From an uncultured Acidobacteriaceae bacterium (GTDB taxonomy: Bacteria; Acidobacteriota; Terriglobia; Terriglobales; Acidobacteriaceae): a stretch of DNA of 64,000 bases. Positions 1-23,864 of the stretch are shown one piece after another; position 1 is the stretch's first letter; the number at the start of each line of letters is the position of its first letter. The position numbers and the translations under genes were made by a program. Below the pieces are notes generated by a model. It did no database searches, was not told the DNA's origin, and saw only the letters and a list, made by a program, of their open reading frames with translations. Location of the stretch: contig CAVPKQ010000050.1 in assembly GCA_963705665.1 (NCBI GenBank), positions 3,580 to 67,579 of the forward strand, given 5' to 3'.

Positions 1-1
1 C

Positions 2-3000: not shown

Positions 3001-3913
3001 CCTGGACGGTTCCACCGGCGGGCTGGGCAAGGTCGCGCTCACCGACTACGGCAGCTACGCCTCGTCGCTGAAGGTCGGCATGGTCAACAGCCCCGGCTAC
3101 GACCCCGCCAAGTACGCGATGCCCAAACCGCCTTCGGCGAACGTGGCACTGACCGTACCGGGCTCGGTTTCCGCCGGTCAGAGCTTCACGGCCACGGCCA
3201 CCATCCAGGTGCCGCAGTGGGCGAGCCCGGCCACCGATGTCACGGCCGCCCTCCAGGCGCCGACCGGCTGGACGGTCGGCGCACCGTCACCCGCGTCGAT
3301 CGCCGCGCTGCGCCCAGGCGGGACGGCCACGGTGCAGTGGCCGGTCACGGGGCCCGCGACGCTCACCCCCTCCTCGGCACTGACCGCCACCGTCCACTAC
3401 ACCCAGCGTGGACGCGCCGGCACCGCGAACGACGAGCGGATCGTCGGGAAGATCCCGCCGCCGCCGCCGGCCGGCACCGACGCCGTGAGCGACCTGCCGT
3501 TCCTCAGCGCCACCAACGGCTGGGGCCCGGTCGAGCGGGACATGAGCAACGGCGAGCAGGCGGCCGGTGACGGCGAGCCGATCACCATCGACGGCGTGCG
3601 CTACGCGAAAGGGCTCGGCACGAACTCGATCAGCGAGGTGCAGGTCTACCTGGCCGGCAAGTGCACCCGGTTCACCGCCGAGGTGGGCGTCGACGACGAA
3701 ACCCACGGCGCGGGCACGGTGACGTTCAGCGTGGCCGCGGACGGCAGGACCCTCGTCACCACGCCGACGATCAAAGGCGGTCAGGCCGCCACCCCGATCG
3801 ACGTCGACGTGACCGGCGCCCAGGTGCTGAGCCTGATCGTCGGCGACGCGGGTGACGGCAACGGCAACGACCACGGCGACTGGGCCTCGCCAACGCTCAC
3901 CTGCACAGGCTGA
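2..3913 (+). CDS. Glycoside hydrolase family 35 beta-galactosidase, 5'-truncated by the window edge, with an internal CBM-like beta-sandwich insert and a C-terminal NPCBM-type carbohydrate-binding module
   Basis: The frame is open from nt 2 (FRLPSPDLWLDIFQKMKAAGFNATSLYFDWDYH...YVIARPAPYINAEVDSGGLPTWL...VENEY), which is a GH35 signature. The C-terminus (GWGPVERDMSNGE...GVDDETHGAGTVTFSV...GDAGDGNGNDHGDWA) resembles the NPCBM/NEW2 module. Codon third positions are strongly G/C biased. Confidence 0.85.
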   Translation, partial: FRLPSPDLWLDIFQKMKAAGFNATSLYFDWDYHSPQPGVYDFSGVRDIDKLLDYAQQAGLYVIARPAPYINAEVDSGGLPTWLTTKDEQNRSDDPKFLAYADQWMTQIDRILARHQLTNGTGSVIAYQVENEYYNGSAAGRAYMQHLEDKARADGITVPLTGNNNGTFNSGVGALNVDGPDSYPQGFNCSNPTKWNGVPNISYDHPAGNPLYSPEFQGGAFDPWGGPGYDKCAQLINDQFANVFYKNNIAVGATAQSFYMTYGGTNWGWLGMPENYTSYDYGAAIRETRQLDPKYYEDKLIGEFTQSVAPLTKTDQINVTPPDNPAIVDTARMNPDTRTQFHTLRHADSTSTATDTTHISIDFNAQPITSVPYTYDDTDPALAYTGTWSHVANQSYTGGDYQNTESFSNTAGDSMTVNFTGTAVHWIGSRTNNHGYADVYLDGTKQATVDASGNQDQAILFSKSGLTDGPHTLKIVVDGTHSTNSTDNYVSIDAIDVPTAAAANPTYPVVPQQPGTGISLDGRDSHIIVANYQLGDSQLQYSTSEIMTNATIGNRDIAVLYGDQGSDGETVLRYSAKPTVSVTGGAATTTWDPTTGDLRLNYQHNGLLRVTVNAAGKRPLLLLIGDKPTAETFWRQDTSAGPVLVRGTHLLRTAAAHGNTVDLTGDNAGDNNIEVFTAAQHVTWNGQPVRTTPTPTGSLTGVIPVAQPVQLPQLTNWQHAEESPESQPGFDDSTWAVADKTTTNSITGVTTPPVLYADDYGFHTGNTWYRGRFRTTGKETGIHLVSDSGGGAQAFSAWLNGTFLGSSTTGSADFTFPAGSLNANGDNVLSVLTVNMGHEEDYNSTNGNKTARGLTSAALDGAPINTITWRLQGVRGGETEIDPVRGPLSTGGLYGERAGWSLPGYPDGNWSTVSLPTTDTRPGVSWYRDDVTLNLPKGQDTSVGLTFTDDPSRKYRATLYVNGWQLGNYVNYLGPQHSFPIPNGILNPNGRNTIAIAVWNLDGSTGGLGKVALTDYGSYASSLKVGMVNSPGYDPAKYAMPKPPSANVALTVPGSVSAGQSFTATATIQVPQWASPATDVTAALQAPTGWTVGAPSPASIAALRPGGTATVQWPVTGPATLTPSSALTATVHYTQRGRAGTANDERIVGKIPPPPPAGTDAVSDLPFLSATNGWGPVERDMSNGEQAAGDGEPITIDGVRYAKGLGTNSISEVQVYLAGKCTRFTAEVGVDDETHGAGTVTFSVAADGRTLVTTPTIKGGQAATPIDVDVTGAQVLSLIVGDAGDGNGNDHGDWASPTLTCTG

Positions 3914-5906
3914 CCAGCGCGGCGTCCGCGCCCGCGCGCAGGAACACCGGGATCCGCGACAGCGGCGCCTCGACGTCGATCGTCCCGCCGCCCGGGTGGG
4001 ACGTCCCGGTCCACGCGTCCGTCCAGTCCGGACCGTCCGGCAAATACACCGTTCTGGCCCGGGAGTTCGGGAACAGGACGGGCGCGACGAGCAGATCGTG
4101 GCCGAGCAGGAACTGGTCGTCGATGTCCCAGGCACGCTCGTCGCGGGGAAAGTCGACGAACACCGGCCGCATCGGTGGCAGCCCGGTCTCGTGCGCGACG
4201 CGCATCTGCCGCATCAGGTAGGGCCGCAGCCGCTCGCGCAGCCGCAGCGTCTGCCCGATCAGCTCGGCCGCCTCCTCGCCATAGGACCAGACCTCGTTGG
4301 GTCCGCCGGTCATGTCCGGACCGAACGGGGGCCTCGGATCGCGGAAGCCGTGCAGCCGGAACAGCGGGCAGAACGCGCCGTACTGGAACCAGCGCACGAT
4401 CAGTTCGCGGTAGTCGGCGGACGTCGGGTCGCCGCCGTGGAAGCCGCCGATGTCCGTGGTCCACCACGGAATTCCGGACAGTCCGATGTTCAGCCCGGCG
4501 CGGACCTGGGCGCGCAGCGATGCCCAGTCCGGGCCGATGTCGCCGGACCAGACGGCGGCGCCGTAACGCTGGCTGCCGGCCCAGGCCGACCGGCTCAACA
4601 ACACCACGTCGTTGTCACCGGCCGCGCGGGTGCCGTCGAAGAACGCGCGGGCGTGCTGCGCCGGGTAGCTGTTGACGACCTCGGCGCCCGGACCACCGTG
4701 GAAGGACAGGTTGGCGGGGTGGCCGGGCTGGATCTCGGGTTCGCAGGCGTCCAGCCAGAACGCGCGAATGCCCAGGTCGAAGTAGTTGCGCTTGACCGTC
4801 GACCAGATGAACTCCCGAGCCGCCGGATTGGTCGGATCGTAGAAGGCGACCGGCAGCTCGACCGGGAAGCCCTTGTCCCGCCAGGGAGCGTGGAACGGGA
4901 GGCCCTGCTCGGTGCCGACCAGCAGGCCGCCGTCATTCAGTTCGCGGTAGTTCTCGCTCAGCGGGCTTACCGTGGGCCAGATCGAGACCATCAGCCGCAC
5001 GCCGAGTTCGGCCAGCTCCCGCACCAGCGCGGCCGGATCGGGCCAGTCCTCGTGGTCGAAGCGCCAGTCGCCGAGGTGCGGCCAGTGGAAGAAGTCGGTG
5101 ACGATGACCGAGAGCGGCAGCTCGCGCCGCGCGTACTCCCGGGCCACCGCCAGCAGTTCGGCCTGGCTGCGATAGCGCAGTTTGGACTGCCAGAAGCCGG
5201 CGGCCCACTCCGGCAGCATCGGCGGCCGACCGGTCGCGTCGGCGTAGTTGCCGAGAATGTCGGCCGGACGCTCGCCCGCGGTGATCCAGTAGTCCAGTTG
5301 CCGGGCGCTGTCCGCGACCCAACGGGTGCCGTTCTCGGCGAGTTCGACCCGGCCGACGGCAGGCAGGTTCCAGAGCAACCCGTAGCCGCGGTTGGACAGC
5401 AGGAACGGCACGCTCACCTCGCCGTTGCGCTGCACCAGATCCAGGACCAGCCCCTTCTGGTCGAGGCGACCGTGCGTGTGCTGGCCGAGCCCGAACAGCT
5501 TCTCCCCGGGATAGCCGGCGAAGCGCTGCTCCAGCCGATGCCCGCCCCCGTGCTGCGGAAGGAACAAACGCGCACCCGGCCACCAGAAGTGTGCCCGCTG
5601 CTCCGCGAGCAGTTCCTCCCCGGAATCCGTGCGCACGAACCGGATCAGCGCGTACGGACCGGTGTCGCCGACGAGTTCCTCGACGATCGCGGTGAGCGAG
5701 CCGTTGCTGATCCGGCCGGTGCGATCGGTGACCGTCACGGTCGGCTCGGACGGTTTGGGGGTGAGCAGCGCGCCCGGCAGGTCGTCCAGGATGCGGTGCA
5801 GTCCCGCGCGCACCCGCAGGCTGTCCGCTCCCCACGGCTCGATCCGCAGCACCTCGTGCCCGATGGTCACCGCAACGGCCTTGCGGTCGTCGGTGGTCGT
5901 GATCAT
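3897..5906 (-). CDS. Glycoside hydrolase family 31 (alpha-xylosidase/alpha-glucosidase-like)
   Basis: 669-aa ORF with GH31 motifs (FWLDACEPE nucleophile region, AAVWSGDI, WWTTDIGGF acid/base region). A GAGGAAG RBS precedes the ATG at 5906. The 3' end overlaps the convergent GH35 gene by 17 nt. Confidence 0.85.
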   Translation of the reverse strand: MITTTDDRKAVAVTIGHEVLRIEPWGADSLRVRAGLHRILDDLPGALLTPKPSEPTVTVTDRTGRISNGSLTAIVEELVGDTGPYALIRFVRTDSGEELLAEQRAHFWWPGARLFLPQHGGGHRLEQRFAGYPGEKLFGLGQHTHGRLDQKGLVLDLVQRNGEVSVPFLLSNRGYGLLWNLPAVGRVELAENGTRWVADSARQLDYWITAGERPADILGNYADATGRPPMLPEWAAGFWQSKLRYRSQAELLAVAREYARRELPLSVIVTDFFHWPHLGDWRFDHEDWPDPAALVRELAELGVRLMVSIWPTVSPLSENYRELNDGGLLVGTEQGLPFHAPWRDKGFPVELPVAFYDPTNPAAREFIWSTVKRNYFDLGIRAFWLDACEPEIQPGHPANLSFHGGPGAEVVNSYPAQHARAFFDGTRAAGDNDVVLLSRSAWAGSQRYGAAVWSGDIGPDWASLRAQVRAGLNIGLSGIPWWTTDIGGFHGGDPTSADYRELIVRWFQYGAFCPLFRLHGFRDPRPPFGPDMTGGPNEVWSYGEEAAELIGQTLRLRERLRPYLMRQMRVAHETGLPPMRPVFVDFPRDERAWDIDDQFLLGHDLLVAPVLFPNSRARTVYLPDGPDWTDAWTGTSHPGGGTIDVEAPLSRIPVFLRAGADAALVSLCR

Positions 5907-5918
5907 GAACTTCTTCCT

Positions 5919-6743
5919 CTATTCCTTGATCGCCCCGCCGGTCACTCCGGCGACGACGAAGCGCTGCGCGATCACCAGCAGCACGGCGGCCGGGATCGAC
6001 GCGAGGACGGCGGTGGCCATGATCCCGTTCCAGTCGGCGGTCTGGTTGCCGACGAAGCGGTAGATGCCCACGGTGATCGGTTCGATGTCCTGGCCGGTCG
6101 TCATGGTCACCGCGAACAGGAAGTCGGCCCAGGCGAACAGGAACGAGAACAGTCCCGCGGTGACCAGCGCGTTGCGGCTGACCGGAATGATGATCGAGGC
6201 GAACACCCGCCAGTGCCCCGCTCCATCCACAGTGGCCGCTTCGGAGAGGTCCCTCGGTATCGCGATCATGAACGCGCGCAGCACCAGGATGGCGAACGGG
6301 ATGGTCGCGGTCGAGTCGGCCAGGATGAGCCCGACATAGCTGTCGATCAGGCCGAGCTTGCTGAACACGGTGTAGAGCGCGTTCGCCATCACGATGCCCG
6401 GGATCATCTGCACGATCAGCAGCGCGAACACCAGCCACGACCGGCCGGGGATCGGCAACCGGGCCAGCGAGTACGCGGCCGGTGCCGCGATCAGCAGCGA
6501 CAGCACCACCGCGCCGAGCGCCACGATCAGGCTGGTGACCAGGTGGGGGAGTTGCCCGCGCAACGCCTCGGTGTAGCCGGTGAACGTGGGACTGGTCGGG
6601 AACCAGTCCGGCGAGGCCCGCAGCAGCGCGCCGCTGGGTTGCAGCGACGCGTTGACCATCCAGTACAGCGGAAACAGCAGCACCACCACGATGAGCACAC
6701 CGACAACCGTGCGAACCCTGCTCCTCATGCTGTCGCTTTCCAT
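5919..6743 (-). CDS. Carbohydrate ABC transporter permease (MalG/AraQ-like)
   Basis: The membrane-protein part of the long ORF 5919..7259 starts at MESDSMRSRVRTVVGVLIVVVLLFPLYWMV. It has six hydrophobic segments and an EAA-like loop (DLSEAATVDGAGHWRVFASIIIP). Sequence upstream of M173 is Arg/Gly-rich high-GC read-through. Confidence 0.85.
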   Translation of the reverse strand: MESDSMRSRVRTVVGVLIVVVLLFPLYWMVNASLQPSGALLRASPDWFPTSPTFTGYTEALRGQLPHLVTSLIVALGAVVLSLLIAAPAAYSLARLPIPGRSWLVFALLIVQMIPGIVMANALYTVFSKLGLIDSYVGLILADSTATIPFAILVLRAFMIAIPRDLSEAATVDGAGHWRVFASIIIPVSRNALVTAGLFSFLFAWADFLFAVTMTTGQDIEPITVGIYRFVGNQTADWNGIMATAVLASIPAAVLLVIAQRFVVAGVTGGAIKE

Positions 6744-7693
6744 GAGGCGGCCTCGGCCAGGGTGCCGCGCGCGGAGCGCAGGTAGAGCAGGCCGAACACC
6801 GCGGTCACCACGATCAGGATGTTGCCGACCGCGGCGCCGTCGCCGAACTGGAACTGTTGGAACGAGAGGCTGTAGGACCAGGTGGTCAGTGTCTGGCTGG
6901 CGTTCGCGGGACCACCCCGGGTGATCACCATGATCACGTCGAAGACCTTGATGGTGTAGACGAGGCCGAGCATCAGCACGATGCCGGTGACCGGCCGCAG
7001 CAGCGGCCAGGTGACGTGCCGGAAGCGCTGCCATGCTCCGGCGCCGTCGAGTTCGGCCGCCTCGTGCAGCGAAGCCGGAATCGCGCGCAGCCCGCCGTGC
7101 AGGATCACCAGGTTGAACGGGATGCCGATCCAGATGTTGGCCAGGATCACCGCGGGCAGCGCCCAACCCGGACTGACCAGCCACGGCACCCCGCCCGAGG
7201 ACAGGTGCAGGGCGCGCAGCACGGTGTTGATCACGCCATGGTCCGCGTCCAGCATCCACCGCCAGACCGCGCCGCTGACCACCAGCGGCAGCAGCCAGGG
7301 CAGCAACAACAGCGAGCGCAGCAGCGCACCGCCCAGGAACCGCCCGTTGAAGAACACCGCGAGGGCCAGCCCGATGGCGAACTGGAAGACGATCGATCCG
7401 ACGGTGAACACCACCGTGTTCACGACGGCCTTGCCGAACACCGGATCGTGCAGCACGGCAAGGTAGTTGCGGGCACCGACGAAGGGCGCGTCACCGGTGT
7501 AGAACGAGCTGACGGTGTAGTTCTCCGACCCCATCACCAGGTTGTTCACCAGCGGATAGCCGAAGAACACCAGCACGTAAACCAGTGCCGGGGCGAAGAA
7601 TCCGATGGCGGCCAGCCGCTGCCCGCGGCGCCGAGCCCCGGTGCGGGTCCTGGCCAGGACGGTGCCGGCCGCCGTCGCGGTCGCCGCCGTCAC
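6725..7693 (-). CDS. Carbohydrate ABC transporter permease (MalF/AraP-like)
   Basis: A GTG start overlaps the SBP stop (GTGA at 7690-7693). Sequence runs VTAATATAAG...RLAAIGFFAPALVYVLVFFGYPL, with EAA loop LHEAAELDGAGAWQRFRHVTWPLLRP. Confidence 0.8.
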   Translation of the reverse strand: MTAATATAAGTVLARTRTGARRRGQRLAAIGFFAPALVYVLVFFGYPLVNNLVMGSENYTVSSFYTGDAPFVGARNYLAVLHDPVFGKAVVNTVVFTVGSIVFQFAIGLALAVFFNGRFLGGALLRSLLLLPWLLPLVVSGAVWRWMLDADHGVINTVLRALHLSSGGVPWLVSPGWALPAVILANIWIGIPFNLVILHGGLRAIPASLHEAAELDGAGAWQRFRHVTWPLLRPVTGIVLMLGLVYTIKVFDVIMVITRGGPANASQTLTTWSYSLSFQQFQFGDGAAVGNILIVVTAVFGLLYLRSARGTLAEAASWKATA

Positions 7694-8910
7694 GAGCCGG
7701 CCGCGGCCTGCTGCTGGGCCTGGGCCAAGGCGGACTGGGGACTCTGCGCTCCGGTCAGCGCGGCCTGGATCGCGGTGGCCAGCGCCGTGGACACCTTCGG
7801 ATATTTGGTGCCGAGGTCGGCGGTCCTGGACCGGGCCGTGTCCACTTCGGTCACGAAGGAGCGCATCGCGGGATTCCGCTGGGCGAACGTGGTCGCGGTG
7901 CTCTGCCGGGACGGCACGTAGTCGTGGCCGGTGTCCCAGCCGAGCATGTTCTTCTCCGACAGCACGCAGGACAGCACCTTGGCCGCCGCCTGCTGGGTGC
8001 CCTCGCCGGTCGCCGGGATCACGCCGACCTCGCCGCCCAGCGCCACCACCGGCGAGCCGCCCGCCGTCGGCGTCGGCAGCGACACCACGCCGTAGTGCAG
8101 GCTGCCGCTTTCGTTGAGCGTAGGCAGCGTCCACGAGCCGTTGATCATCATGGCGGCGTTGCCCGAGGTGAACTGGTCGGTCACGTCGTTCTGGTTCCAG
8201 TTCACCACCGACTTCGACGCCGAACCCGCCGAGACCAGGCCGGCGACGAACGTCAGCGCGGCGACCGCCCGCGGCGAGTCCAGGTGGGACAGATCGGCGC
8301 CGTTGCTCCAGAAGAAGGGCAGGAACTGCCAGGTGCCCTCCTCGGAGTTCGCGGCCGAGAACGCGAGGCCGTAGGTGGATCCCTTGGTCAGCTTGGCCGC
8401 GTCGGCCCTCAGTTCGTCCCAGGTGGACGGTGGGGTGATGTCGGCGGCCTGCAACAGGTCCTTGTTGTAGATCAGCGCGAGCCCGTTCACGCCGGGCGCG
8501 AGGCCATAGACCTTGCCCTGGTAGGTCCCGGCCTTGACGATGCTCTGGTAGTAGCCGTCGGTGCCGATGCCGTAGTCGGTCAACGGGGTCAGCGCGCCGG
8601 TCGCCGCGATCTCCTGGAGCGTCGGATTGTCCGTGAAGGCGAGGTCGGGCAGGGTGTGCGAGGTCGCGCCCTGGAGAATCTTCTGGGTGAGCTGGTCGGT
8701 CGGCACGCTTTGCCGGTTGACCTTCACCCCGGTCTGGGCGGTGCAGGCGCTGAGCACCTGCTGCCAGGCCGCGCTGCCGGACGTGTCCGTGTAGTAGTCC
8801 AGTTCGGTGATCGAGGACGCCGACCCGCCGCTTGCGGACGAACCGCAGCCCGCCGCCGTCAACGCGATGGCGAGCGCGGCGGCTCCGACCATCACCGCAC
8901 GTCCGGTCAT
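7690..8910 (-). CDS. ABC transporter extracellular sugar-binding lipoprotein
   Basis: The N-terminus MTGRAVMVGAAALAIALTAAGCGSS carries a lipobox. The rest looks like a family-1 solute-binding protein. Its ATG overlaps the lacI-family stop (ATGA at 8907-8910). Confidence 0.85.
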   Translation of the reverse strand: MTGRAVMVGAAALAIALTAAGCGSSASGGSASSITELDYYTDTSGSAAWQQVLSACTAQTGVKVNRQSVPTDQLTQKILQGATSHTLPDLAFTDNPTLQEIAATGALTPLTDYGIGTDGYYQSIVKAGTYQGKVYGLAPGVNGLALIYNKDLLQAADITPPSTWDELRADAAKLTKGSTYGLAFSAANSEEGTWQFLPFFWSNGADLSHLDSPRAVAALTFVAGLVSAGSASKSVVNWNQNDVTDQFTSGNAAMMINGSWTLPTLNESGSLHYGVVSLPTPTAGGSPVVALGGEVGVIPATGEGTQQAAAKVLSCVLSEKNMLGWDTGHDYVPSRQSTATTFAQRNPAMRSFVTEVDTARSRTADLGTKYPKVSTALATAIQAALTGAQSPQSALAQAQQQAAAGS

Positions 8911-9935
8911 TTTTCTGCTCCTTCGTAGCTGTGGATGCGGGCGGCGGTGCTCGACCGTTCGGTGAGCCTCGGCGAGAGCAGCCTGATCTCGGGATGGGTC
9001 TCCCCGTTGAGCTGGCGCATCGCCATGTCGACCGCGGTGCGGCCGACCTCGTCGGCCGGGATGGCGACCGAGGTCAGCGGAATCGACTGGTTCGTGGCCA
9101 TGTCCTGCGGGCAGACCGCGACCACCGAGATGTCCTGCGGCACCCGCACTCCGCGCTGACGCAGATCGGAGAGCAGCGCGGGCAGGACCGCCTCGTTGTG
9201 CACGACCAGACCGGTGGTGCCGGGTTGCGTGCGCAGCACGTCGTCGAGGCAGCCGCGAGTGGCCTCGTAGGAGGGGGCGCAGGGGCGCGCGATCGCGTGC
9301 ATGTCGCGTTCGGCCGCGGTGGCGCTGAAACCGCGCAGGAATCGGCCCGCGTAACTGGTGCCGCGCTCGTAGACGGCGGGGGAGGGGCCGATCAACGCGA
9401 TCTCGGTGTGCCCGAGATCGCTCAGGTGGCTCACGCAGACCGCGCCCGCGGCGGCGAAGTCCAGGTCGACGCAGGTCAGTCCGCGCGGGTGATCCGGGAC
9501 GCCGATCAACACGACGGGCCGCTCCAGCGACAGCAGCACCGGCACCCTCGGCTCGGCCGCTTCGACGTCCATCACGATGATCGCGTCCGCCATCGACGAG
9601 CCCGCGACCCTGCGCAGCCCGTCCGGCCCCTCGTCCTTGGTCAGCAGCAGGAGGTCGTGGTCGTAGGTACGGGCCGTGGTCACCGCCGCGGTCACGAACT
9701 GCATCACCACCGGCACGTTCTGGTCCGCGCGCAACGGCACGACGAGCGCGAGCACGTTCGACCGGTTGCCGGCCAGGGCACGGGCGCCCGCATGCGGGCG
9801 GTAGCCGAGCTTGCGGATGCTCTGCTCGACACGGTGCCGGGTCGACGCCGAGATCGATCGCTTCCCGGACAGCACATAGGACACGGTGCTGGGTGACACT
9901 CCCGCGTCGCCCGCGACATCAGCGATCGTCGCCAC
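8907..9935 (-). CDS. LacI-family transcriptional regulator, first gene of the sugar operon
   Basis: N-terminal HTH MATIADVAGDAGVSPSTVSYVLSGKRSISASTRHRVEQSIRKLGYRP followed by a periplasmic-binding-fold sugar sensor domain. A GAGGAGG RBS lies upstream of the ATG. Confidence 0.9.
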   Translation of the reverse strand: MATIADVAGDAGVSPSTVSYVLSGKRSISASTRHRVEQSIRKLGYRPHAGARALAGNRSNVLALVVPLRADQNVPVVMQFVTAAVTTARTYDHDLLLLTKDEGPDGLRRVAGSSMADAIIVMDVEAAEPRVPVLLSLERPVVLIGVPDHPRGLTCVDLDFAAAGAVCVSHLSDLGHTEIALIGPSPAVYERGTSYAGRFLRGFSATAAERDMHAIARPCAPSYEATRGCLDDVLRTQPGTTGLVVHNEAVLPALLSDLRQRGVRVPQDISVVAVCPQDMATNQSIPLTSVAIPADEVGRTAVDMAMRQLNGETHPEIRLLSPRLTERSSTAARIHSYEGAEK

Positions 9936-9959
9936 GTGCCTGCCTCCTCATCGAAGCGC

Positions 9960-9975
9960 ATCGACAGTTGTCGAT
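9960..9975. promoter_or_regulatory. Candidate LacI-type operator (perfect 7+7 inverted repeat ATCGACA-gt-TGTCGAT)
   Basis: The palindrome atcgacagttgtcgat lies 25-40 nt upstream of the lacI-family ATG, in the promoter region of the regulator-led operon. Confidence 0.35.
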
Positions 9976-9999
9976 AGCGCACGAATGTGCCAGACGTGG

Positions 10000-10786
10000 C
10001 AACGTCGCACAAGAGGGCGGCGAATACCAGGGACCGACTTTCAACATCTCTACAGCCTGCTCATCGGCGACCCACGCCTTGGGGCAGGCCTTCTGGATGG
10101 TGCGTTCCGGGGCAGCTCCTCTGGCCATTGCCGGAGGCAGCGAGTCGCCGATCTTTTTGGGTGGCCTGAAGGCATGGGAGGCGATGCGCGTCGTCAGTCC
10201 CGATACCTGCCGGCCCTTTTCCCTGAATCGCTCCGGCATGATCTTAGGAGAAGGCGCGGCGATGCTGGTTCTCGAGCCCCTGGAGCGCGCCCTGGCCCGT
10301 GGGGCCAAGCCCTTGGCGGAGATCGTGGGATTCGGCATGTCGGCGGATGCTTCACACATGACCCAACCGTCCGCCGAGGGAGCAGCCAGGGCGGTCCGCT
10401 CCGCGTTGCGCGATGCAGACTGGGCGCCGGAGCAGGTCGGCTATATCAACGCCCACGGAACCGGCACGGAAGCCAACGACTGCATGGAAGTTGCCGCCAT
10501 ACGGTTGGTCTTTGGTAAACACGCCGACCGTTTGGCCATCAGCTCTACGAAAGCCATGCACGGGCACGCTCTCGGCGCGGCCGGGGCGCTCGAAGCCGCG
10601 GCCACGGTCTTTGCGCTGGAGCAAGGAGTATTGCCCCCCACCATGAACTTCACCGCTCCCGATCCCGCTTGCGATCTGGACGTAGTTCCCAATGAAGCCC
10701 GTCCAGCGCAGGTAGAAGCTGCCTTGTCGCAAAACTTCGCCTTCGGGGGCCTGAATGCTGTGCTGGCCTTCCGGGCCTATCCGTAA
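10000..10786 (+). pseudogene. Beta-ketoacyl-ACP synthase (KAS II/FabF-like), 5'-truncated, C-terminal ~60% only
   Basis: Family similarity starts at the active-site Cys region (GPTFNISTACSSATHALGQAF). It continues through HMTQP, NAHGTGT and KAMHGHALGAAG to the stop at 10786. There is no N-terminal half, start codon or RBS. The fragment abuts the high-GC block. Confidence 0.75.
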
Positions 10787-10872
10787 TCAGGGATCAGGGA
10801 CCGCAAAGCGCTAGTAGACGAGCCCATTCAGGTCGCATATAGTCAGTGGAGCCCAAGGAGGGCAGCTCTCAA

Positions 10873-11199
10873 ATGCGCATGATGCTCAAGGTTTCAATTC
10901 CTGTCGAGGCGGGCAACGCCGCAGCTCGAAATGGCAGTTTGGGGTCCACTATCCAGGCCATTCTCGATGATTTGAAACCCGAAGCAGTGTACTTTACCGA
11001 AGAGAATGGCGAGCGGACCGCCTATGTATTTTTCGACATGAAGGAATCGTCACAAGTGCCGGCCATTGCGGAGCCCTGGTTTCTTGCCTTCAACGCGAAG
11101 ATCACATTGCGTCCGGCCATGAACGTGCAGGATCTCGCCGCCGGCGGCTCGGGAATTGAACGGGCGGTAAAGAGCTACGGCAAGTCCGCGCAGTTCTGA
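10873..11199 (+). CDS. Conserved small hypothetical protein
   Basis: An AAGGAGG-like RBS sits 8 nt before the ATG at 10873. Sequence [41 protein letters not shown]...[13 protein letters not shown] recognise it as a widespread uncharacterised family but cannot name the family. Confidence 0.55.
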
Positions 11200-11271
11200 C
11201 CCTCCGCAGCTGATCTTCTAATTAGGGAGCAGGGGTCAGAATTGGGAATCTGGATTCTGAAACCACTCACC

Positions 11272-11907
11272 CTACGAGTTCTGGGACGCCGTCCTTTGAC
11301 GCATTTCACCGGCTAGCTTTGAGGCTGCCACGCAAATGTCACCAAAAATTCTCGCCTCAAACAGGGTTTGCGTTCCAGCGCTCTCCTGAAGTTCAAGAAC
11401 ATGCTTCCGCAGTCTGCGATAAGTCCACATCATTTGTGGTACGGCTGGCTGACTGTGTCCGCGCCGCACGAACGCATTCCCAAGCTCACGCATCACTCCC
11501 TCGACCGTACCGTCATGAATATTGAAATCCGTGCCATTAAGGTCGCTGATCGACTTTAAAGCCCTTCTAGGCTGAGTTTCAGTTACGAACCATGTATGCG
11601 CGCCGCGATTCAACTTGGCCCAGGCAATCGCAAGACCCAGTTCCAGGGGCATATTGAAGCGTGGAGTCGCCGGAGCGGTCCAATCCAACTGAACACGAGA
11701 GAGGTCATGCATGGAATACCGGCAGCTTTGGATTAGCTTGAAAATTCGGTCCAACCGGCGCTCTCCACCCGGAATCTCCAACGTGGCGCGAGGAGAAAGA
11801 CCCAACACGCTGAGTCCTGCGATGTATGCCAGGTATAGCCTTTCGAATGCGCTGTCGTAAGGAATATTCAAGAAGACGGAATTGCGATCAACCCTTGGTT
11901 TGGGCAC
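11272..11907 (-). CDS. Hypothetical protein with a possible TIR / nucleoside 2-deoxyribosyltransferase-like N-terminal domain
   Basis: 211-aa ORF with motifs VFLNIPYD, CRYSMHDLSR and RFNMPLELGLAIAW. Local GC is lower than the surroundings. No family was confidently recognised. Confidence 0.5.
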   Translation of the reverse strand: MPKPRVDRNSVFLNIPYDSAFERLYLAYIAGLSVLGLSPRATLEIPGGERRLDRIFKLIQSCRYSMHDLSRVQLDWTAPATPRFNMPLELGLAIAWAKLNRGAHTWFVTETQPRRALKSISDLNGTDFNIHDGTVEGVMRELGNAFVRRGHSQPAVPQMMWTYRRLRKHVLELQESAGTQTLFEARIFGDICVAASKLAGEMRQRTASQNS

Positions 11908-12163
11908 CGCTCACCGTTCGGCCCTGGGGTGATGTTGCGGGTTTTCTGTGCGTTGTGCTGGTCTTCTTAGCTGCTCCCCGGCCGTTCTTGAAGCCCGATC
12001 TCCGCCTGGCCTGAAGCGTAGATCGGCTCTTGCGCTTCGCGCTCGGGGTCTCAGAGCCAACGATTTCCGCGATCTCCTGTTGCCGTTGGCGGGAAACCCC
12101 CAAGCGGGCCGCCACTTCTTCCGGCGAGAGGAACGGTGTCGTGATGATTACAGAGTGGCTCAT
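11888..12163 (-). CDS. Small putative DNA-binding protein (HTH plus basic tail)
   Basis: MSHSVIITTPFLSPEEVAARLGVSRQRQQEIAEIV is followed by a Lys/Arg-rich tail. A GAAGGA RBS precedes it. It overlaps the downstream 211-aa ORF by 20 nt. Confidence 0.4.
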   Translation of the reverse strand: MSHSVIITTPFLSPEEVAARLGVSRQRQQEIAEIVGSETPSAKRKSRSTLQARRRSGFKNGRGAAKKTSTTHRKPATSPQGRTVSGAQTKG

Positions 12164-12197
12164 GTCGTCCTTCTCTATCTTAGACCCGTCCCTGGCT

Positions 12198-13493
12198 CTA
12201 ATTGCGCGCCATCTTCTCGAAGACTTCCAAGGCATATTCCAGATGGGCGCGGGTATGCGCCGCCGTGACGCAGAGGCGAAGCCGGGCCGAGTCCTGGGGA
12301 ACGGCCGGGAAGAGCACCGGAGCCGCCAGAATGCCGTAATCGCGCAGCCGTCTGGCAAACAGGCCAGTGGTAGCCTCGTCGTTGAAAATGACCGGGATCA
12401 CCGCGGTTTCCGAGAGGCCGGTGTTGTAACCCATCTCACGCAGGCCATTGCGCAGAAAATTAGCGTTCTGCGCGATCTTGGCGACCCGCTCGGGCTCCAA
12501 AGCGAGGATGGCCAAACCCTCGCGGATCGCGGCCACCGATCCTGGACTCAACGCGGCGGAAAAAATATAAGGCGAGGCAGCGTGCTGGAGAAAGATTGCC
12601 AGTTCCTGCGAAACTGCAGCGAAGCCGCCCGTCGCAGGAATCGCCTTGGCCAGCGAGCCCGTCCAAATATCCACTTCGGCCGCGTCAATGCCGAAATGCT
12701 CATCGACGCCGCGGCCATGAGCTCCCAACACTCCTGTGGCGTGCGAATCGTCCACCAGCAGGAAGCAGCCGAATTCCCGGACCACATCGAGGATCTCGGG
12801 CAAACGGCAAATATCTCCATCCATGGAGAAGACGCCTTCGGTGATGACCAACGTGCGATTGGCGGGCGGCCCGTTTTGAATCTCTTGCCGCAGAGAATCA
12901 ATATCGTTGTGCCGGAAGCGCTGCAGTTGGACGCCGGCAAACCTGCAGGCGTCGGTCAGGCTGCGATGGCAAATGGCATCCATGATTACCCGATCCGCCG
13001 CGCCGAAGAGCCCCCCGATTACAGCGACATTGGCCATATAGCCCGAGCTAAAGGTGATGGCGGCCTCGGTCCCGCGAAAAGCGGCCAAATCCTGCTCCAT
13101 GCGCTGGTGCTGGTCCGTAGTCCCGGTGAGCAGGCGAGCCCCTCCGGTGCCGGTGCCGTACCTCTTGATGGCCTCGATGGCCGCGGCGTCGACCCGCGGG
13201 TCGCCAATCAATCCCAGGTAATCATAGGAGGAGAGCATGAGCATGGAGTGGCCATCGGCTTCGACCTCAGGACCAGTCCTTGCTTGGAGCGGGATCTGAA
13301 ACGGATAGGCATCGACGTTGCAGGCTAAGGCGGTTGTCTCGAAGACCCGCCGCCCGCGGGCATCGATGAGATCATTTTTGCGGAACTTCCAGTCTCTCTT
13401 GCGGGAGAAGTATCCGTTGAAATGCTTGCCGGAAGATGAGGGAAATCCGGCAGCCTTTTCCTGCAGCACTTTTGCTTCGATCGAGGTATCCAT
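12198..13493 (-). CDS. PLP-dependent alpha-oxoamine synthase family (8-amino-7-oxononanoate synthase / serine palmitoyltransferase-like)
   Basis: SSYDYLGL, GTGGARLLTG, FSSGYMAN, DDSHATGVLG and the Lys motif TGSLAKAI. It has a ~60-aa N-terminal extension relative to a typical BioF. Confidence 0.9.
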   Translation of the reverse strand: MDTSIEAKVLQEKAAGFPSSSGKHFNGYFSRKRDWKFRKNDLIDARGRRVFETTALACNVDAYPFQIPLQARTGPEVEADGHSMLMLSSYDYLGLIGDPRVDAAAIEAIKRYGTGTGGARLLTGTTDQHQRMEQDLAAFRGTEAAITFSSGYMANVAVIGGLFGAADRVIMDAICHRSLTDACRFAGVQLQRFRHNDIDSLRQEIQNGPPANRTLVITEGVFSMDGDICRLPEILDVVREFGCFLLVDDSHATGVLGAHGRGVDEHFGIDAAEVDIWTGSLAKAIPATGGFAAVSQELAIFLQHAASPYIFSAALSPGSVAAIREGLAILALEPERVAKIAQNANFLRNGLREMGYNTGLSETAVIPVIFNDEATTGLFARRLRDYGILAAPVLFPAVPQDSARLRLCVTAAHTRAHLEYALEVFEKMARN

Positions 13494-13685
13494 CCGTGTA
13501 GCTGACTATAATCGAGGAACACGCGCCTTGGGAAGCGCTCAGATGCATTTCTGGGGCCGTAATGGCTGCCGGGTTACCGGTCAGCCAAGTTCCGAAATCG
13601 GCCGGGAGTTTTGAGACGGTGTGGGTTCTCAATCTCCTGCGGCGCTGATCGGCGTGCGCTCATCTAACTGAGATGAGGATCTTAG

Positions 13686-14756
13686 ATGCTCCCTGTGCTG
13701 CACAACCCGCCTATTGTGCCTGAACTCTCCGCTAACGGAGAGTTTCTGCCCGGCACGCGCCTGAAGGACAAATACGGGCGAACTATCACCGATCTGCGCG
13801 TCTCGGTTACCGACCGCTGCAACTATAAGTGCGTCTATTGCCGTACCGGCAACCAGGGCGCCCAATTTGCCGAGCTGCCGATAGAGGACTACCTCCGCAT
13901 CATCAAGGTCTTTGTTGGCTTAGGCATCGAGAAGGTACGGCTGACCGGAGGTGAGCCGCTGCTGCGCAAGAACCTGGTGAGCATGGTGGCGCAGCTTTCT
14001 CAGCTGCGCACCGACTTCGGCCGCAGCGGAGAACCGCTCGACCTCGCCATCACCACCAATGGCCACCTGCTGGCGGAGTTAGCCCCTTCCCTCAAGTCTG
14101 CCGGACTTACCAGGGTGACGGTCAGCATGGACGCCGTGGATCCGGCTACCTTCGCCCGCATCACCCGAGTGCCGGGAAGCTTCGAGCAGGTGCTTGCCGG
14201 GGTCCGCGTCGCCCAACGGGTGGGGTTGGGGCCGGTGAAAATCAACTGCGTGCTGCTTCGCGGATTCAATGACAGCCAGATCGTCGACTTTGCCCGCTTC
14301 TCCCGCGACGAAGGAGTTATCGTTCGCTTTATCGAGTTCATGCCTCTTGAAGAGGACCGCCTTTGGACCCCCGAGGTGGTTGTCCCGCTCGAAGAAGTAG
14401 TCGAGAGACTCAATAGCTTTCGGCCGCTGGTTCCGCTGGCGGCCAACAATCCCAGCGAGACCGCGCGCCGCTACACCTTCGACGACGGGCTGGGGGAGAT
14501 CGGCATCATAGCGCCCGTCTCGCAAGCATTTTGCGGAGCCTGCAGCCGGGTTCGCCTTACTTCCGACGGCAAGATCCGCACCTGCCTCTTCTCCCATTTC
14601 GATCACGACCTCTATGGCGTGTTGGCGCGCGGCGGCTCGGATGAGGATCTCGCCGGGTTCATTCAAATGACCGTGTCGAAGAAAGAGGCGCGGCATCACA
14701 TTGGGGAGCCGGGCTTCCTCAAGCCGTCCCGCAGCATGGTCCATATCGGTGGCTAG
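13686..14756 (+). CDS. moaA: GTP 3',8-cyclase MoaA (radical SAM, molybdenum cofactor biosynthesis)
   Basis: LRVSVTDRCNYKCVYCR (CxxxCxxC cluster), LTGGEPLLR, and a C-terminal second cluster region CGACSRVRLTSDGKIRTCLF. Confidence 0.92.
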   Translation: MLPVLHNPPIVPELSANGEFLPGTRLKDKYGRTITDLRVSVTDRCNYKCVYCRTGNQGAQFAELPIEDYLRIIKVFVGLGIEKVRLTGGEPLLRKNLVSMVAQLSQLRTDFGRSGEPLDLAITTNGHLLAELAPSLKSAGLTRVTVSMDAVDPATFARITRVPGSFEQVLAGVRVAQRVGLGPVKINCVLLRGFNDSQIVDFARFSRDEGVIVRFIEFMPLEEDRLWTPEVVVPLEEVVERLNSFRPLVPLAANNPSETARRYTFDDGLGEIGIIAPVSQAFCGACSRVRLTSDGKIRTCLFSHFDHDLYGVLARGGSDEDLAGFIQMTVSKKEARHHIGEPGFLKPSRSMVHIGG

Positions 14757-14916
14757 AGCATTGGCCGTTGGGGAACCAAGAAAGCCAACTCAGGCGGCCG
14801 GCGAAAGCCCTGCGCCTGCTGTCCAACCTGGTCGCGCCGGTAACAATAAGAAGAGCGATAGAAGCAATAGAGTGGTTCCGCGAAAAGCGATACCGGCAAC
14901 CGTCAGGGCAGAAACC

Positions 14917-15966
14917 ATGGCTAATCGTAGAGCCGCGGAGAGCGATTCATTCCATGACCTCCACGTCTTTCATGATGTCGCGCGCGCGCTTACCTCGTCG
15001 CTCGATCTGGATTCGATTCTGGGCGCGATCATGCAGCAGATGGAGAAGTTCTTCGAGCCAGAATCCTGGTCGCTTCTGATCGTCGATGAGCAGCAACGGA
15101 ACCTTTATTATGCGGTGGCCGCCGGAAAATCTCCCGGCAAACCAGGCAGTCTGCCCATCCCCCTGGGCGAAGGCATCGCCGGGTGGGTTGCCCAACACGG
15201 CGAGCCGCTTATCGTGCCGGAAGCGAACGGCGATCGCCGCTTTCAGCCCTCCGGGAGCGATGGCGAACCCTGGCCGGTGCGTTCGGTGATCTGCATTCCC
15301 TTGCGCTCGCGAGAACGGACGCTGGGTGTAATCGAGTTGCTGAATTACCGGGTGAGCAGCCTGACCGACTACACCATATCGTTTCTGCACGTGCTTTCCG
15401 ACTATGCCGCAATCGCTATTCAAAATGCGCGCTCCATGGAGCGGATTCAGGAATTAACCATCACCGACGACTGCACGAACCTTTACAACTCGCGTCATTT
15501 GACTTCCGTGATGGAAGCCGAGATCGAGCGTTCGCGCCGTTTCCATCTACCCTTCAGCTTGATCTTTATCGATCTGGATCATTTCAAGCGCGTCAATGAC
15601 CGTCACGGCCACCTTGTAGGCAGCTGGCTGCTGGCGCAGGTCGCCGCGACCGTGAAACAGAATATCCGGGGCGTCGATTCCGCCTTTCGCTATGGCGGGG
15701 ACGAGTTCATCGTTCTATTACCCCAGACCGGCAAGGATGCAGCCTTTGAGGTCAGTCAGCGATTGCTGCGGGCGATGCGCGAGAGTTGCTATTCACGATC
15801 CGAGCAGGTGTCGCTTACCGTGCGCGCCAGTTTTGGGCTGGCAAGCTATCCGGAGGATGGGCAAACGGCCAATGAAATCATCCGCGCCGCTGACGACATG
15901 ATGTACCTGGTAAAGAACTCCACCCGCGACAATATCGCCATTGCGCAGCGCGGCCTGATTGCTTGA
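14917..15966 (+). CDS. GAF domain-containing diguanylate cyclase (GGDEF)
   Basis: The GAF region (LDSILGAIMQQMEKFF...GEGIAGWVAQHGEPLIV) is followed by a GGDEF domain (RYGGDEFIVLL). The start is set at MANRRAAE. The ORF-track start at 14701 overlaps moaA. Confidence 0.88.
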   Translation: MANRRAAESDSFHDLHVFHDVARALTSSLDLDSILGAIMQQMEKFFEPESWSLLIVDEQQRNLYYAVAAGKSPGKPGSLPIPLGEGIAGWVAQHGEPLIVPEANGDRRFQPSGSDGEPWPVRSVICIPLRSRERTLGVIELLNYRVSSLTDYTISFLHVLSDYAAIAIQNARSMERIQELTITDDCTNLYNSRHLTSVMEAEIERSRRFHLPFSLIFIDLDHFKRVNDRHGHLVGSWLLAQVAATVKQNIRGVDSAFRYGGDEFIVLLPQTGKDAAFEVSQRLLRAMRESCYSRSEQVSLTVRASFGLASYPEDGQTANEIIRAADDMMYLVKNSTRDNIAIAQRGLIA

Positions 15967-16042
15967 CAGGTGTCGCGGATCGGGGTTTCTTCCGACTCGT
16001 TGCGGGATCGTGGACTGAGTGATAATAGTAGAGGGGTTTCCG

Positions 16043-16309
16043 ATGGACGTGCAGCTTCAAATCCCGGACGATGTCGCGCGGATCATCCAGAGCGAACAGC
16101 CGGATCTCTCTCGTGCCGCGCTTGAGGCTTTAGCGCTGGAGGGATACCGAAGCGAACGTCTGTCCGAATCGCAGGTGCGACGCCTGCTTGGATTCAGGAC
16201 CCGGATGCAGGTGCATGGCTTTCTGAAGGCCCACAATGTCTATCTCAATTACTCGATTCAGGAACTGGAACGTGATCTTGAATCGCTCAAGCATTTTGAA
16301 GCAACGTAG
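16043..16309 (+). CDS. UPF0175-family antitoxin-like protein
   Basis: MDVQLQIPDDVARIIQSEQPDLSRAALEALALEGYRSERLSESQVRRLLGF is typical of UPF0175. It lies 12 nt upstream of a DUF3368 gene. Confidence 0.75.
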   Translation: MDVQLQIPDDVARIIQSEQPDLSRAALEALALEGYRSERLSESQVRRLLGFRTRMQVHGFLKAHNVYLNYSIQELERDLESLKHFEAT

Positions 16310-16321
16310 AGCAGGGGCTGC

Positions 16322-16807
16322 ATGATCGTCGTCGCAGACACCTCCCCCGTCAATTACCTAGTGCTCCTCAAACATATCGAAATCCTGCCGAAGATTTATG
16401 GTGAAGTGCTTATTCCGCAGGCTGTATACGACGAGCTTCAGGATTGCGAGGCACCAGCCGAGGTTCGTGCGTGGCTCTCGGCGCCACCGGCTTGGCTGCG
16501 GATCAGCAACGTCAGCTACCAACCGGACCCGTTACTGGCTCTTCTCGATCGCGGGGAACAGGATGCAATTCTGCTTGCGAAATCGGTCAAGGCTGAGCGG
16601 CTGATCATCGATGATCTGGACGGCAGGCGCGAAGCTGCGAATCGCAACCTTCCTGTGATTGGAACACTTGGTGTTCTTGCGGAAGCAGCTCGTCGCAATC
16701 TCCTGGACTTATCGCAGGCACTTGCGGCTTTAGAGGCAACTAACTTTCATGCGGCACCCGAACTCATACAGGTATTGTTAGCTAAAGAGGCCAACAGACG
16801 CAAATGA
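16322..16807 (+). CDS. DUF3368 PIN-like nuclease (toxin partner of UPF0175)
   Basis: MIVVADTSPVNYLVLLKHIEILPKIYGEVLIPQAVYDEL...GEQDAILLA...LIIDDLDGRREA. This is the PIN-like acidic residue pattern. Confidence 0.75.
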   Translation: MIVVADTSPVNYLVLLKHIEILPKIYGEVLIPQAVYDELQDCEAPAEVRAWLSAPPAWLRISNVSYQPDPLLALLDRGEQDAILLAKSVKAERLIIDDLDGRREAANRNLPVIGTLGVLAEAARRNLLDLSQALAALEATNFHAAPELIQVLLAKEANRRK

Positions 16808-16981
16808 GAGCCCTCGCCCAGCGTTTAGAGAGCGACAATGCGATGTATCGTATAGATTTTGGCTCGTTGGGGCGGGTCGCCTCCGCTGACCGCTTTTTGC
16901 TGACTCGCTGACTTGCTGACTCGCTCTTTTCTAGTATTTTTAGAAAGGCGAGTCGAAACACACTCTGAGGGAACCGTTACG

Positions 16982-18142
16982 ATGGGCGAAGAGCCAGCAC
17001 GACGCATTCGAATGGGAATGGTGGGCGGAGGACCGGGCGCTTTTATCGGACCGGTACACCGCATGGGGGCTGAACTGGATGGCAAGATTGAACTGGTGGC
17101 CGGAGCCTTCAGTCACGATGCGGCAAAATCGCGCGAGGCGGGGCGGTCCTATGGCATCGGCGAGGAGCGTTCCTACTCCGGTTATCGGGAGATGATGACA
17201 CGGGAGCGCGCCCGTAAAGACGCCATCGATTTTGTATGCATTGTCACTCCCAATCATCTCCACCTCCCCATAGCCAGCGCCGCCCTGGAGAACGGTTTCC
17301 ACGTGGTCAGCGACAAACCGGCGACAGTCGACTTGAAAGAAGCTCTTGAACTTGAAAGTATTGTCCGCCGCACCGGGCTTCTCTATGCGCTCACTTACAC
17401 CTATACCGGGTATCCGATGGTCCGGGAGGCGCGGCATATGGCCCGCGGAGGCGCTGTGGGCAAAATCCGCAAGGTGGTGGTTGAATATTCTCAGGGGTGG
17501 CTTACCGAAGCGCTGGAAAAAACAGGGCAAAGGCAGGCTGCATGGCGAACCGATCCCCAGCAATCCGGCCTGGGCGGAGCTATCGGGGATATCGGCGTCC
17601 ATGCCTTCAACCTGCTGGAGTATTTCACCGGGTTGCGGGTGGCCGAGTTCTGCGCCTCTTTATCCACCGTTGTCCCGGGCCGGACGCTGGATGACGATTG
17701 CAACCTGCTGCTCAAGCTTGACAATGGAGCACCAGGAGTTATGGTCGTGTCGCAGATCGCCGCCGGCGATCGTAACGATATACGGCTGCACGTCTATGGA
17801 GAAAAGGGCGGACTGCACTGGTCGCATGAAAACAATAATGTGCTCGGACTGAACTTGCTCGATGAACCCAGCCAGACCTTGCATGCAGGCTCCCGTTATC
17901 TTTCCGAGCCGACACGCAGCCTGTTCCGTTTGCCGGTAGGACATCCCGAGGGGCTGATCGAAGCCTTCGCCAACATCTATCGCGACTTTGCGGCCGCGGT
18001 GCGAAACCGATTTACCGATCCCAAGGCGGTGCTTACCGATCTGGTGCCGGGCATCGCCGAGGGCCGGCGCAGCATGGCCTTCGTTGAGCAGGCCGTTGAA
18101 AGCAGCCGTTCCCGCGCGGGATGGGTAGCCTTCAAGGATTAA
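16982..18142 (+). CDS. Gfo/Idh/MocA-family NAD(P)-dependent oxidoreductase
   Basis: Rossmann motif IRMGMVGGGPGAFIGPVHR, then IVTPNHLH and VVSDKP. Confidence 0.88.
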   Translation: MGEEPARRIRMGMVGGGPGAFIGPVHRMGAELDGKIELVAGAFSHDAAKSREAGRSYGIGEERSYSGYREMMTRERARKDAIDFVCIVTPNHLHLPIASAALENGFHVVSDKPATVDLKEALELESIVRRTGLLYALTYTYTGYPMVREARHMARGGAVGKIRKVVVEYSQGWLTEALEKTGQRQAAWRTDPQQSGLGGAIGDIGVHAFNLLEYFTGLRVAEFCASLSTVVPGRTLDDDCNLLLKLDNGAPGVMVVSQIAAGDRNDIRLHVYGEKGGLHWSHENNNVLGLNLLDEPSQTLHAGSRYLSEPTRSLFRLPVGHPEGLIEAFANIYRDFAAAVRNRFTDPKAVLTDLVPGIAEGRRSMAFVEQAVESSRSRAGWVAFKD

Positions 18143-18178
18143 ACCAACACATTTCACTGACAGACTGCGAGTACTTGC

Positions 18179-19231
18179 ATGAAAACACTGAAAGGGCCGG
18201 CGATATTTCTGGCCCAGTTCGCCGGCGACCAGCCACCCTTCGACACGCTTCCCGCCATTGCCCAATGGGCGGCCGGCTTGGGTTTCAAAGGAATACAAAT
18301 CCCCACCTGGGATCGCCGCCTCTTCGACCTGAAGGCCGCTGCCGAGAGCCGCGACTACTGTTCCGAAATCGTCGGCGTAGTGCGCGGCCAGGGCCTGGAG
18401 ATTACGGAGCTCTCTACCCATTTACAGGGCCAGCTGATCGCGGTGCATCCGGCATATGACGCATTGTTTGAGAACTTCGCGCCGGCCGAGGTACACGGAA
18501 ATCCCAAGGGCCGCCAGGAGTGGGCCAACCAGCAGCTTCTGCTGGCGGCCAAAGCCAGCCGCAATCTGAATCTCTCCGCTCACCCAACCTTTTCCGGCGC
18601 GCTTGCCTGGCATCTCTTCTATCCCTGGCCACAGAGGCCCGCAGGGCTGATCGAGGAGGCGTTCGCCGAACTTGCGCGGAGGTGGAAGCCGATCCTAGAT
18701 GCCTTCGATGAGGCCGGCGTCGATCTTTGCTTCGAGCTTCATCCTGGAGAAGACTTGCACGATGGGGCCACATTCGAGCGCTTCCTCGACGCCGTCGGCC
18801 AGCATCCCCGCGCCAATATCCTGTACGACCCCAGCCACTTCATGCTGCAGCAACTGGACTATCTGGCCTTTCTCGATCTCTACCACGAGCGGATTCGCGC
18901 CTTTCACGTGAAGGATGCGGAGTTCCGTCCTAACGGGCGCTCCGGCGTTTACGGCGGATACCAGAGCTGGATCGACCGGCCGGGAAGATTCCGCTCCCTC
19001 GGCGACGGACAGATCGACTTCACCGCCATCTTCAGCAAGATGGCGCAGTATGATTTTCCCGGCTGGGCTGTGCTCGAGTGGGAATGCTGCTTGAAGGACC
19101 CGGAAGACGGCGCGCGCGAGGGAGCGGCATTCATCCGCAACCATATCATTCACGTTACGGAGCGAGCCTTCGACGATTTCGCCGACGCCCGCTCCGACAG
19201 CGGCTTCAACCGGCGCGTCCTCGGCCTGTAA
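18179..19231 (+). CDS. Sugar phosphate isomerase/epimerase (xylose isomerase-like TIM barrel)
   Basis: 350-aa ORF with CFELHPGEDLHD, YDPSHFMLQ and FHVKDAEF motifs. It sits next to the Gfo/Idh/MocA gene. Confidence 0.85.
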   Translation: MKTLKGPAIFLAQFAGDQPPFDTLPAIAQWAAGLGFKGIQIPTWDRRLFDLKAAAESRDYCSEIVGVVRGQGLEITELSTHLQGQLIAVHPAYDALFENFAPAEVHGNPKGRQEWANQQLLLAAKASRNLNLSAHPTFSGALAWHLFYPWPQRPAGLIEEAFAELARRWKPILDAFDEAGVDLCFELHPGEDLHDGATFERFLDAVGQHPRANILYDPSHFMLQQLDYLAFLDLYHERIRAFHVKDAEFRPNGRSGVYGGYQSWIDRPGRFRSLGDGQIDFTAIFSKMAQYDFPGWAVLEWECCLKDPEDGAREGAAFIRNHIIHVTERAFDDFADARSDSGFNRRVLGL

Positions 19232-19251
19232 GAGTGTGCATTCATTCCCGG

Positions 19252-19290: not shown

Positions 19291-19364
19291 AGACGGATTA
19301 CCTTAGCCCTTATCCGCCGCTGCTTCCCTCGATTTGCAATGCTCCGGGCCTTTTGTATTTGTGG

Positions 19365-23848: not shown

Positions 23849-23864
23849 TTGCATCTCCTCGGAA

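Follow-up and report, generated by a model that had tools for sequence, protein, structure and literature searches.

A 64-kb window of a public Acidobacteriaceae contig that very probably joins actinomycete and acidobacterial DNA falsely at one blunt point

The DNA analyzed here (the window, a stretch of 64,000 nt) contains two blocks that meet near its left end, and the features of both that lie around their meeting point are collected in Table 1. The left block is part of a sugar-utilization locus in which Pfam matches of the genes are to glycosidases, an ABC transporter and a LacI regulator only. Its first gene, which encodes a GH35 beta-galactosidase, is cut at the 5' end by the window edge (its frame is open from base 2, and its relatives are 1376-1379 aa long). 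An earlier description of this DNA made from its letters (the sequence-only reading) had reported overlapping genes and long antisense open reading frames in this block, and both are present: the LacI gene and the solute-binding protein gene overlap by 4 nt, and the ORFs 8..2932 (minus strand) and 3852..6785 (plus strand) are shadows, the first opposite the GH35 gene and the second opposite the GH31 gene and the permease gene downstream of it.

Upstream of the LacI gene the window retains only a remnant of the expected intergenic region. In relatives this region measures ~275-320 nt and has a divergent GH3 gene on its far side; the window lacks this gene. The remnant includes the palindrome that had been pointed out at 9960-9975, ATCGACA-GT-TGTCGAT. 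Its perfect 7-2-7 form is a 1-nt deletion relative to both of the closest actinomycete relatives (L081 and L082, below), which read TCGAC-AGTTC/AGTCC-GTCGA at this site. In the relatives the part of the intergenic region that the window has lost carries two further TTCGAC(G/A) motifs, and the native LacI operator is therefore probably a multi-site array.

The right block begins with the 3' part of a gene for a NodE/FabF-like beta-ketoacyl-ACP synthase (KAS), which is followed by a 108-aa gene, a 211-aa gene, a gene for a PLP-dependent enzyme that resembles AONS and serine palmitoyltransferase, and MoaA. In the window and in the relative L001 the 211-aa gene separates the AONS-like gene from the KAS cluster; the relatives L083, L085 and L086 lack it. 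It is best read as a small accessory insertion within the acidobacterial lineage.

Table 1. Coordinates of the breakpoint, the two blocks and the genes and regions near their meeting point in the 64,000-nt window
Feature	Coordinates	Strand	Basis or remark
Actinomycete block	1..10026		69.0% GC; part of a chromosomal sugar-utilization locus; extends leftwards beyond the window
GH35 beta-galactosidase with NPCBM domain	2..3913	+	Pfam Glyco_hydro_35 (8e-74), BetaGal domains, NPCBM
GH31 glycosidase	3897..5906	-	Pfam Glyco_hydro_31_2nd (3e-85); same position in L081
Two ABC sugar-transporter permease genes	5919..7693 (about 5919-6746 and 6725-7693)	-	Pfam BPD_transp_1 in both; syntenic with L081
ABC-transporter extracellular solute-binding protein	7690..8910	-	Pfam SBP_bac_8, SBP_bac_1
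LacI-family repressor, 342 aa	8907..9935	-	Pfam LacI and Peripla_BP_3; GTG start, GGAGG upstream
LacI upstream-region remnant, 91 nt	9936..10026	-	Includes the palindrome 9960-9975
Blunt breakpoint	10026..10027		Last actinomycete base 10026, first acidobacterial base 10027
Acidobacteriaceae block	10027..64000		57.7% GC; collinear with acidobacterial relatives
NodE/FabF-like beta-ketoacyl-ACP synthase (KAS), 3' fragment	10027..10786	+	Translation, Pfam
Conserved 108-aa gene after KAS in the native cluster	10873..11199	+	Beside KAS in L083 and L085; no Pfam match
211-aa gene	11272..11907	-	No Pfam match; low GC3 (0.57)
AONS/serine-palmitoyltransferase-like PLP enzyme, native KAS neighbor	12198..13493	-	Pfam Aminotran_1_2; 98% aa identity to L083 and L085

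The base compositions of the two blocks differ in the way that the sequence-only reading had judged by eye, with very high GC on the left and a clear drop on the right: positions 1-10026 have 69.0% GC and positions 10027-64000 have 57.7%. In one-kb windows the values are 0.690 ± 0.020 on the left and 0.577 ± 0.024 on the right, and their ranges do not overlap. GC3 is 0.90-0.96 in six left genes versus 0.57-0.77 in nine right genes, and the left block is without compositional amelioration. Tetranucleotide usage, compared between 5-kb blocks, also separates left from right: the correlation is 0.95 within the left block, 0.86 on average within the right block (range 0.78-0.92) and 0.68 on average across the junction. 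The composition of the right block is uniform as far as the end of the window. Thus, composition and codon usage change abruptly at a single point, as they do in chimeric contigs. By GC alone the change-point would fall at ~10607, because the KAS fragment is itself ~65% GC, and for this reason GC was dropped as a locator of the breakpoint in favor of homology, which places it better.

From what organisms do the two blocks come? Protein searches assigned the left genes to Actinomycetota and the right genes to Acidobacteriaceae. Among named relatives the LacI protein comes closest to proteins of Pseudonocardiaceae MAGs and Phaeacidiphilus (79-80%), and for the GH35 protein the identity is 88% to a protein of a Pseudonocardiaceae MAG and 77-79% to many proteins from Streptomyces, Streptacidiphilus and Actinacidiphila (none of the matches listed for it is a 100% match). 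At the DNA level large Streptomyces replicons match only in part, at 74-81%; a plasmid origin of the left block was considered and, as no better matches to such replicons were found, rejected. Much closer are two metagenomic contigs: L081, a 62-kb JGI contig, is collinear with window positions 2228-3913 and 3923-10026 at 92-93% nt identity, and L082, a 1.8-kb Logan contig from another sample, is 98.3% identical over positions 8552-10026. Judged by these relatives the left block is Actinomycetota DNA, and its synteny with L081 is that of an ordinary chromosomal sugar locus. L081 carries an extra gene between GH31 and GH35 (positions 16039-19337 of L081), which encodes a 1051-aa alpha-L-arabinofuranosidase-like protein and is missing from the actinomycete block at window positions 3913-3923; its presence or absence is ordinary gene-content variation in the locus.

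The right block is collinear with L001, an Acidobacteriaceae MAG contig, at 80-85% nt identity and with L086 at 85-88%, and it is collinear with L083 and L085 at 90-95% over at least 15 kb. By these alignments it is Acidobacteriaceae DNA, in agreement with the Acidobacteria-like gene content that had been noted to the right of the junction. One S9/Tricorn-type peptidase gene in these relatives differs between two of them: it is a single 743-aa gene in L085 (2566-4797) and is split into four ORFs of 174, 110, 114 and 334 aa in L083 (2132-4402). The split looks like the result of uncorrected indel errors in the public contig.

Close relatives of each side allowed the breakpoint to be placed to a single base without the use of reads, as follows: L081 and L082 align with the window to exactly position 10026 and then continue with intergenic sequence of their own, L081 reaching the divergent GH3 gene and L082 heading towards the divergent gene, and the alignments of L001, L083, L085 and L086 begin at 10027/10028 with 85-95% nt identity. 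All four of these right-hand relatives continue leftwards into the 5' part of the KAS gene, and three of them reach codon 1. Over the 40 nt left of the junction L081 and L082 match the window at 30-33 of 40 positions and the four right-hand relatives at 8-11, and over the 40 nt right of it L081 and L082 match at 7 of 40 and the right-hand relatives at 26-37. At 10026|10027 the left and right relatives share 0 nt, so there is no microhomology. The sequence-only reading had put the junction within 9936-10030, which contains the breakpoint, and its narrower placement at ~9975-10000 is corrected by homology to 10026|10027. No N occurs in the window, and neither an ONT nor a Nextera adapter remnant was found near the junction; a 13-mer that resembles TruSeq (up to 5 mismatches) does occur nearby and was set aside as a chance match. 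Each side is thus collinear with a different set of references that run natively through the breakpoint, and by these assignments gene-level taxonomy switches at the same point, both of which are expected of a chimeric contig. The proposal of separate evolutionary histories for the two blocks is borne out, since they belong to different phyla and each has relatives that run through the breakpoint.

The KAS gene is the one that the junction cuts. What is left of it comprises the last base of codon 157, codons 158-409 and a normal stop at 10786; it starts 9 codons ahead of the active-site Cys and matches the Pfam ketoacyl-synt profile from position 164 of 252 on, followed by the complete C-terminal domain. 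The first matches in the protein search are from Acidobacteriaceae MAGs, the best being L001 (93% aa identity), and the fragment is 96% identical to the proteins of L083 and L085. The KAS proteins of L001, L083 and L085 are all full-length at 409 aa, and the gene of L086 runs on leftwards to the end of its contig. Against these full-length relatives 252 of 409 residues are kept in the window, very close to the truncation (about 255 of about 410 aa) that had been estimated from the letters. It had also been said that the gene has no start codon; in fact a GTG at 9893 opens an in-frame 297-aa ORF, and this ORF is spurious because the DNA of its first 45 codons is actinomycete and runs antisense to the start of LacI. 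The match is unbroken across the break site in most of the 80 JGI metagenome loci that were recovered, and it is likewise unbroken in P0179, a JGI protein that is 98% identical. In L083 and L085 an ACP gene precedes KAS. The ACP, the NodE-like KAS, the 108-aa protein and the AONS-like enzyme form a conserved cluster (window 10027-13493; L083 10001-13500) that is present in Acidobacteriaceae and Bryobacterales MAGs; it may specify a specialized lipid pathway, for example one of the sphingolipid type.

Public records place both sides of the junction on one contig. Eight exact window proteins are each recorded, in NCBI and ENA, on a contig of 90,312 bp: from the left block these are LacI (P0001, a 100% match) and the solute-binding protein, and from the right block MoaA, AONS, an AP endonuclease (18179-19231), AlaRS (27440-30151) and two further proteins (49022-50509 and 58162-59418). 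Because the exact proteins of both sides are found there, the junction lies inside one deposited contig. The native 5' neighbors of KAS appear to be elsewhere: the ACP, a 206-aa protein, a methyltransferase, the M50 protease, RsmI and others were looked for, and for none of them is a member of its protein cluster recorded on the 90,312-bp contig. RsmI, M50 and a 5' part of KAS (P0147) are carried by a contig of 14,108 bp, also recorded in NCBI and ENA, on which neither AONS nor MoaA is found. The proteins of the 14,108-bp contig are 94-98% identical to those of L083 and L085, the same divergence as that of the right block. P0147 stops at residue 136 because of a frameshift after W124 and a natural stop met in the new frame, so its end is not necessarily the end of a contig. 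The same sources and the same divergence from L083 and L085 are circumstantial evidence that the 14,108-bp contig could be the true left continuation of the right block, from the same assembly and split off by a false join. Another candidate for a KAS part, P0182 (a 229-aa C-terminal product on a 14,182-bp ENA contig that ends inside KAS), proved to be an unrelated relative.

Does the junction carry any sign of a biological insertion? Pfam searches of all left-block genes found no integrase, transposase or conjugation gene. There is no tRNA gene at the boundary (the only one in the window is at 56.8 kb, at least 46 kb away), and no direct or inverted repeat flanking the junction was found. The visible boundary therefore has none of the mobility genes, tRNA or att repeats by which a genomic island is recognized. 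A 42-mer that spans the junction had no match in the JGI metagenome contigs, the collection in which we looked for the same junction in independent assemblies.

Taken together, these results indicate that the window is very probably part of an assembly-chimera contig in which actinomycete DNA was joined to Acidobacteriaceae DNA. According to this explanation a stretch of actinomycete chromosome would end within the LacI-GH3 intergenic region and would have been joined end to end to an Acidobacteriaceae stretch that starts at the end of KAS codon 157. Since left and right relatives share no sequence at the junction, the join would stem from a chimeric molecule or read, or from a bridging error with long reads, and not from a shared repeat. 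We infer that it was made during sequencing or assembly and not in a cell; the likeliest cause would be a chimeric long read in a low-coverage long-read metagenome assembly, either a ligation artifact or a bridging read that was wrongly accepted. The truncated KAS gene and the orphaned operator would then be by-products of a false join, and no biological mechanism would have acted at the junction. The closest relatives bear MFD MAG names and contig_NNNN labels, and their pipeline consists of Nanopore sequencing, metaFlye assembly, Medaka polishing and then binning (PMC12313526); the source assembly was presumably made with Nanopore and metaFlye as well. The frameshifted genes in L083 and P0147 fit the Nanopore technology.

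One point that speaks against a chimera is that rare illegitimate recombination also gives blunt joins without microhomology, and a real event would have to be a recent horizontal transfer in which at least 10 kb of actinomycete chromosome entered an Acidobacteriaceae KAS gene by illegitimate recombination and reached a high frequency in the population. The location of the junction within a single deposited contig agrees with such a transfer, and the absence of Ns, adapter and shared k-mers would be compatible with end-joining in a cell, but we consider it very unlikely for the following reasons: neither a mobile-element gene nor an att repeat nor a tRNA lies at the boundary; the supposed donor DNA is a sugar locus of the ordinary chromosomal kind, shows no amelioration (GC3 as above) and is 98.3% identical to the contig of a free-living actinomycete; and the insertion would cost the host a KAS gene found at full length in three relatives, continuing to the contig end in a fourth and matched without a break in most of the JGI loci recovered. 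Moreover, the native 5' neighbors of KAS are absent from the 90,312-bp contig and appear on a separate one, and the junction was not found in the JGI metagenomes. That the junction is real, with at least 10 kb of an unameliorated, LacI-controlled galactoside-utilization locus end-joined into an ACP-KAS-aminotransferase lipid cluster, is in our estimation highly improbable; if it were true, transfer between phyla would have been caught directly in the act, with no mobile element involved.

Artifacts of other kinds were weighed in the same way. Two contigs could have been concatenated without a gap marker by scaffolding, reassembly or curation before deposit, and the perfectly blunt, overlap-free join has the look of a simple concatenation, with both sides on one 90,312-bp record. 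This too is very unlikely: standard scaffolders insert Ns, which the window does not contain, and the pipelines of the closest relatives include no contig-joining step (PMC12313526). The sequence alone does not separate such joining from a chimeric read, and either way the junction would be an artifact. Binning contamination is the commonest way in which two phyla come to sit together in one "genome", but it is extremely unlikely here, as is a concatenation of two contigs in the making of the 64-kb window, because the contig on which exact proteins of either side are recorded is one and the same, 90,312 bp long every time, and the window has no Ns. The sequence-only reading had held a chimera to be the most economical explanation and had offered an assembly chimera, a binning chimera and an artificial concatenation; its preference is supported, and of the three the record of both sides on one contig removes the latter two and leaves an assembly mis-join.

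The assembly chimera favored here can be compared with known systems. Multi-phylum chimeric contigs have been documented from metaFlye, metaMDBG and hifiasm-meta, and are recognized by a shift in GC, a shift in taxonomy and read clipping (bioRxiv 10.1101/2025.04.22.649783). The window has the same sudden shift in GC and gene taxonomy at one point and the same cut genes at the break, with each side otherwise a normal genome; the documented cases were defined by read clipping and a step in coverage, whereas the present one is defined from sequence, with the assembler an inferred one. In genomic islands and integrative elements, likewise, a block of foreign composition borders on native sequence at a point where a gene is disrupted. 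Unlike them, the left block has no integrase, transposase, conjugation gene, tRNA target or flanking repeat at its visible boundary, and it holds a sugar locus of the housekeeping type that has synteny with an actinomycete chromosome and is unameliorated. Repeat-mediated mis-joins by de Bruijn or overlap assemblers also make two genomes falsely adjacent in one contig, but they pass through sequence common to both source genomes, of which there are 0 nt here.

As biology the junction is of no importance; it is a matter of data hygiene. At least 10 kb of a 90-kb contig in a public MAG comes from a different phylum, and false claims of gene transfer between phyla could arise from this contamination, which could also inflate the apparent carbohydrate-use repertoire of the acidobacterium. 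Contamination checks based on marker genes would probably miss the foreign block, because such checks use gene families of another kind than its glycosidases, ABC transporter and LacI regulator. The case is also a clean worked example of how close relatives of each side make it possible to locate a chimeric join to the base when no reads are used.

Several repeats were seen elsewhere in the right block. A dispersed intergenic repeat of ~50 nt (GGAAACCGCAGATCTCTCCACTCCGCTGCGCTCCGGTCGAGATGACAAA) occurs at 30279-30330, 34821-34869 (inverted), 34948-34999, 35339-35390 and 42811-42862. A 42-nt hairpin unit (34912-34953, 35304-35345 and 42775-42816) frequently accompanies it, giving composite elements of ~130 nt, and the repeat looks like a REP- or MITE-like family. 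A second family of short intergenic hairpin repeats (AAAGCAGATTCCCTTCGGGAATGACAGA) is found at 19252-19290, 19368-19403 (inverted), 19426-19464 and 32552-32590. Window positions 19253-19290 and 32552-32590 match intergenic sequence of L085 (about 4929-5079), which in the collinear alignment occupies the position of window 19253-19460.

The tRNA of the window, tRNA-Ser(tga) at 56777-56866 (minus strand), is partly duplicated nearby: its 3' end is repeated at 57570-57599 (93%), and a second copy (95%) of its 5' part with upstream sequence (56827-56928) lies at 59721-59822. The ~3-kb interval 56777-59822 contains a DUF4411/PIN-like ORF and an ImmA/IrrE-type XRE-peptidase gene pair (resemblances judged by eye), and an ORF with a Fic motif (HPFxxGNGR) lies just outside it at 55070-56314. 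The interval, with its att-like duplications, may be a small integrated islet.
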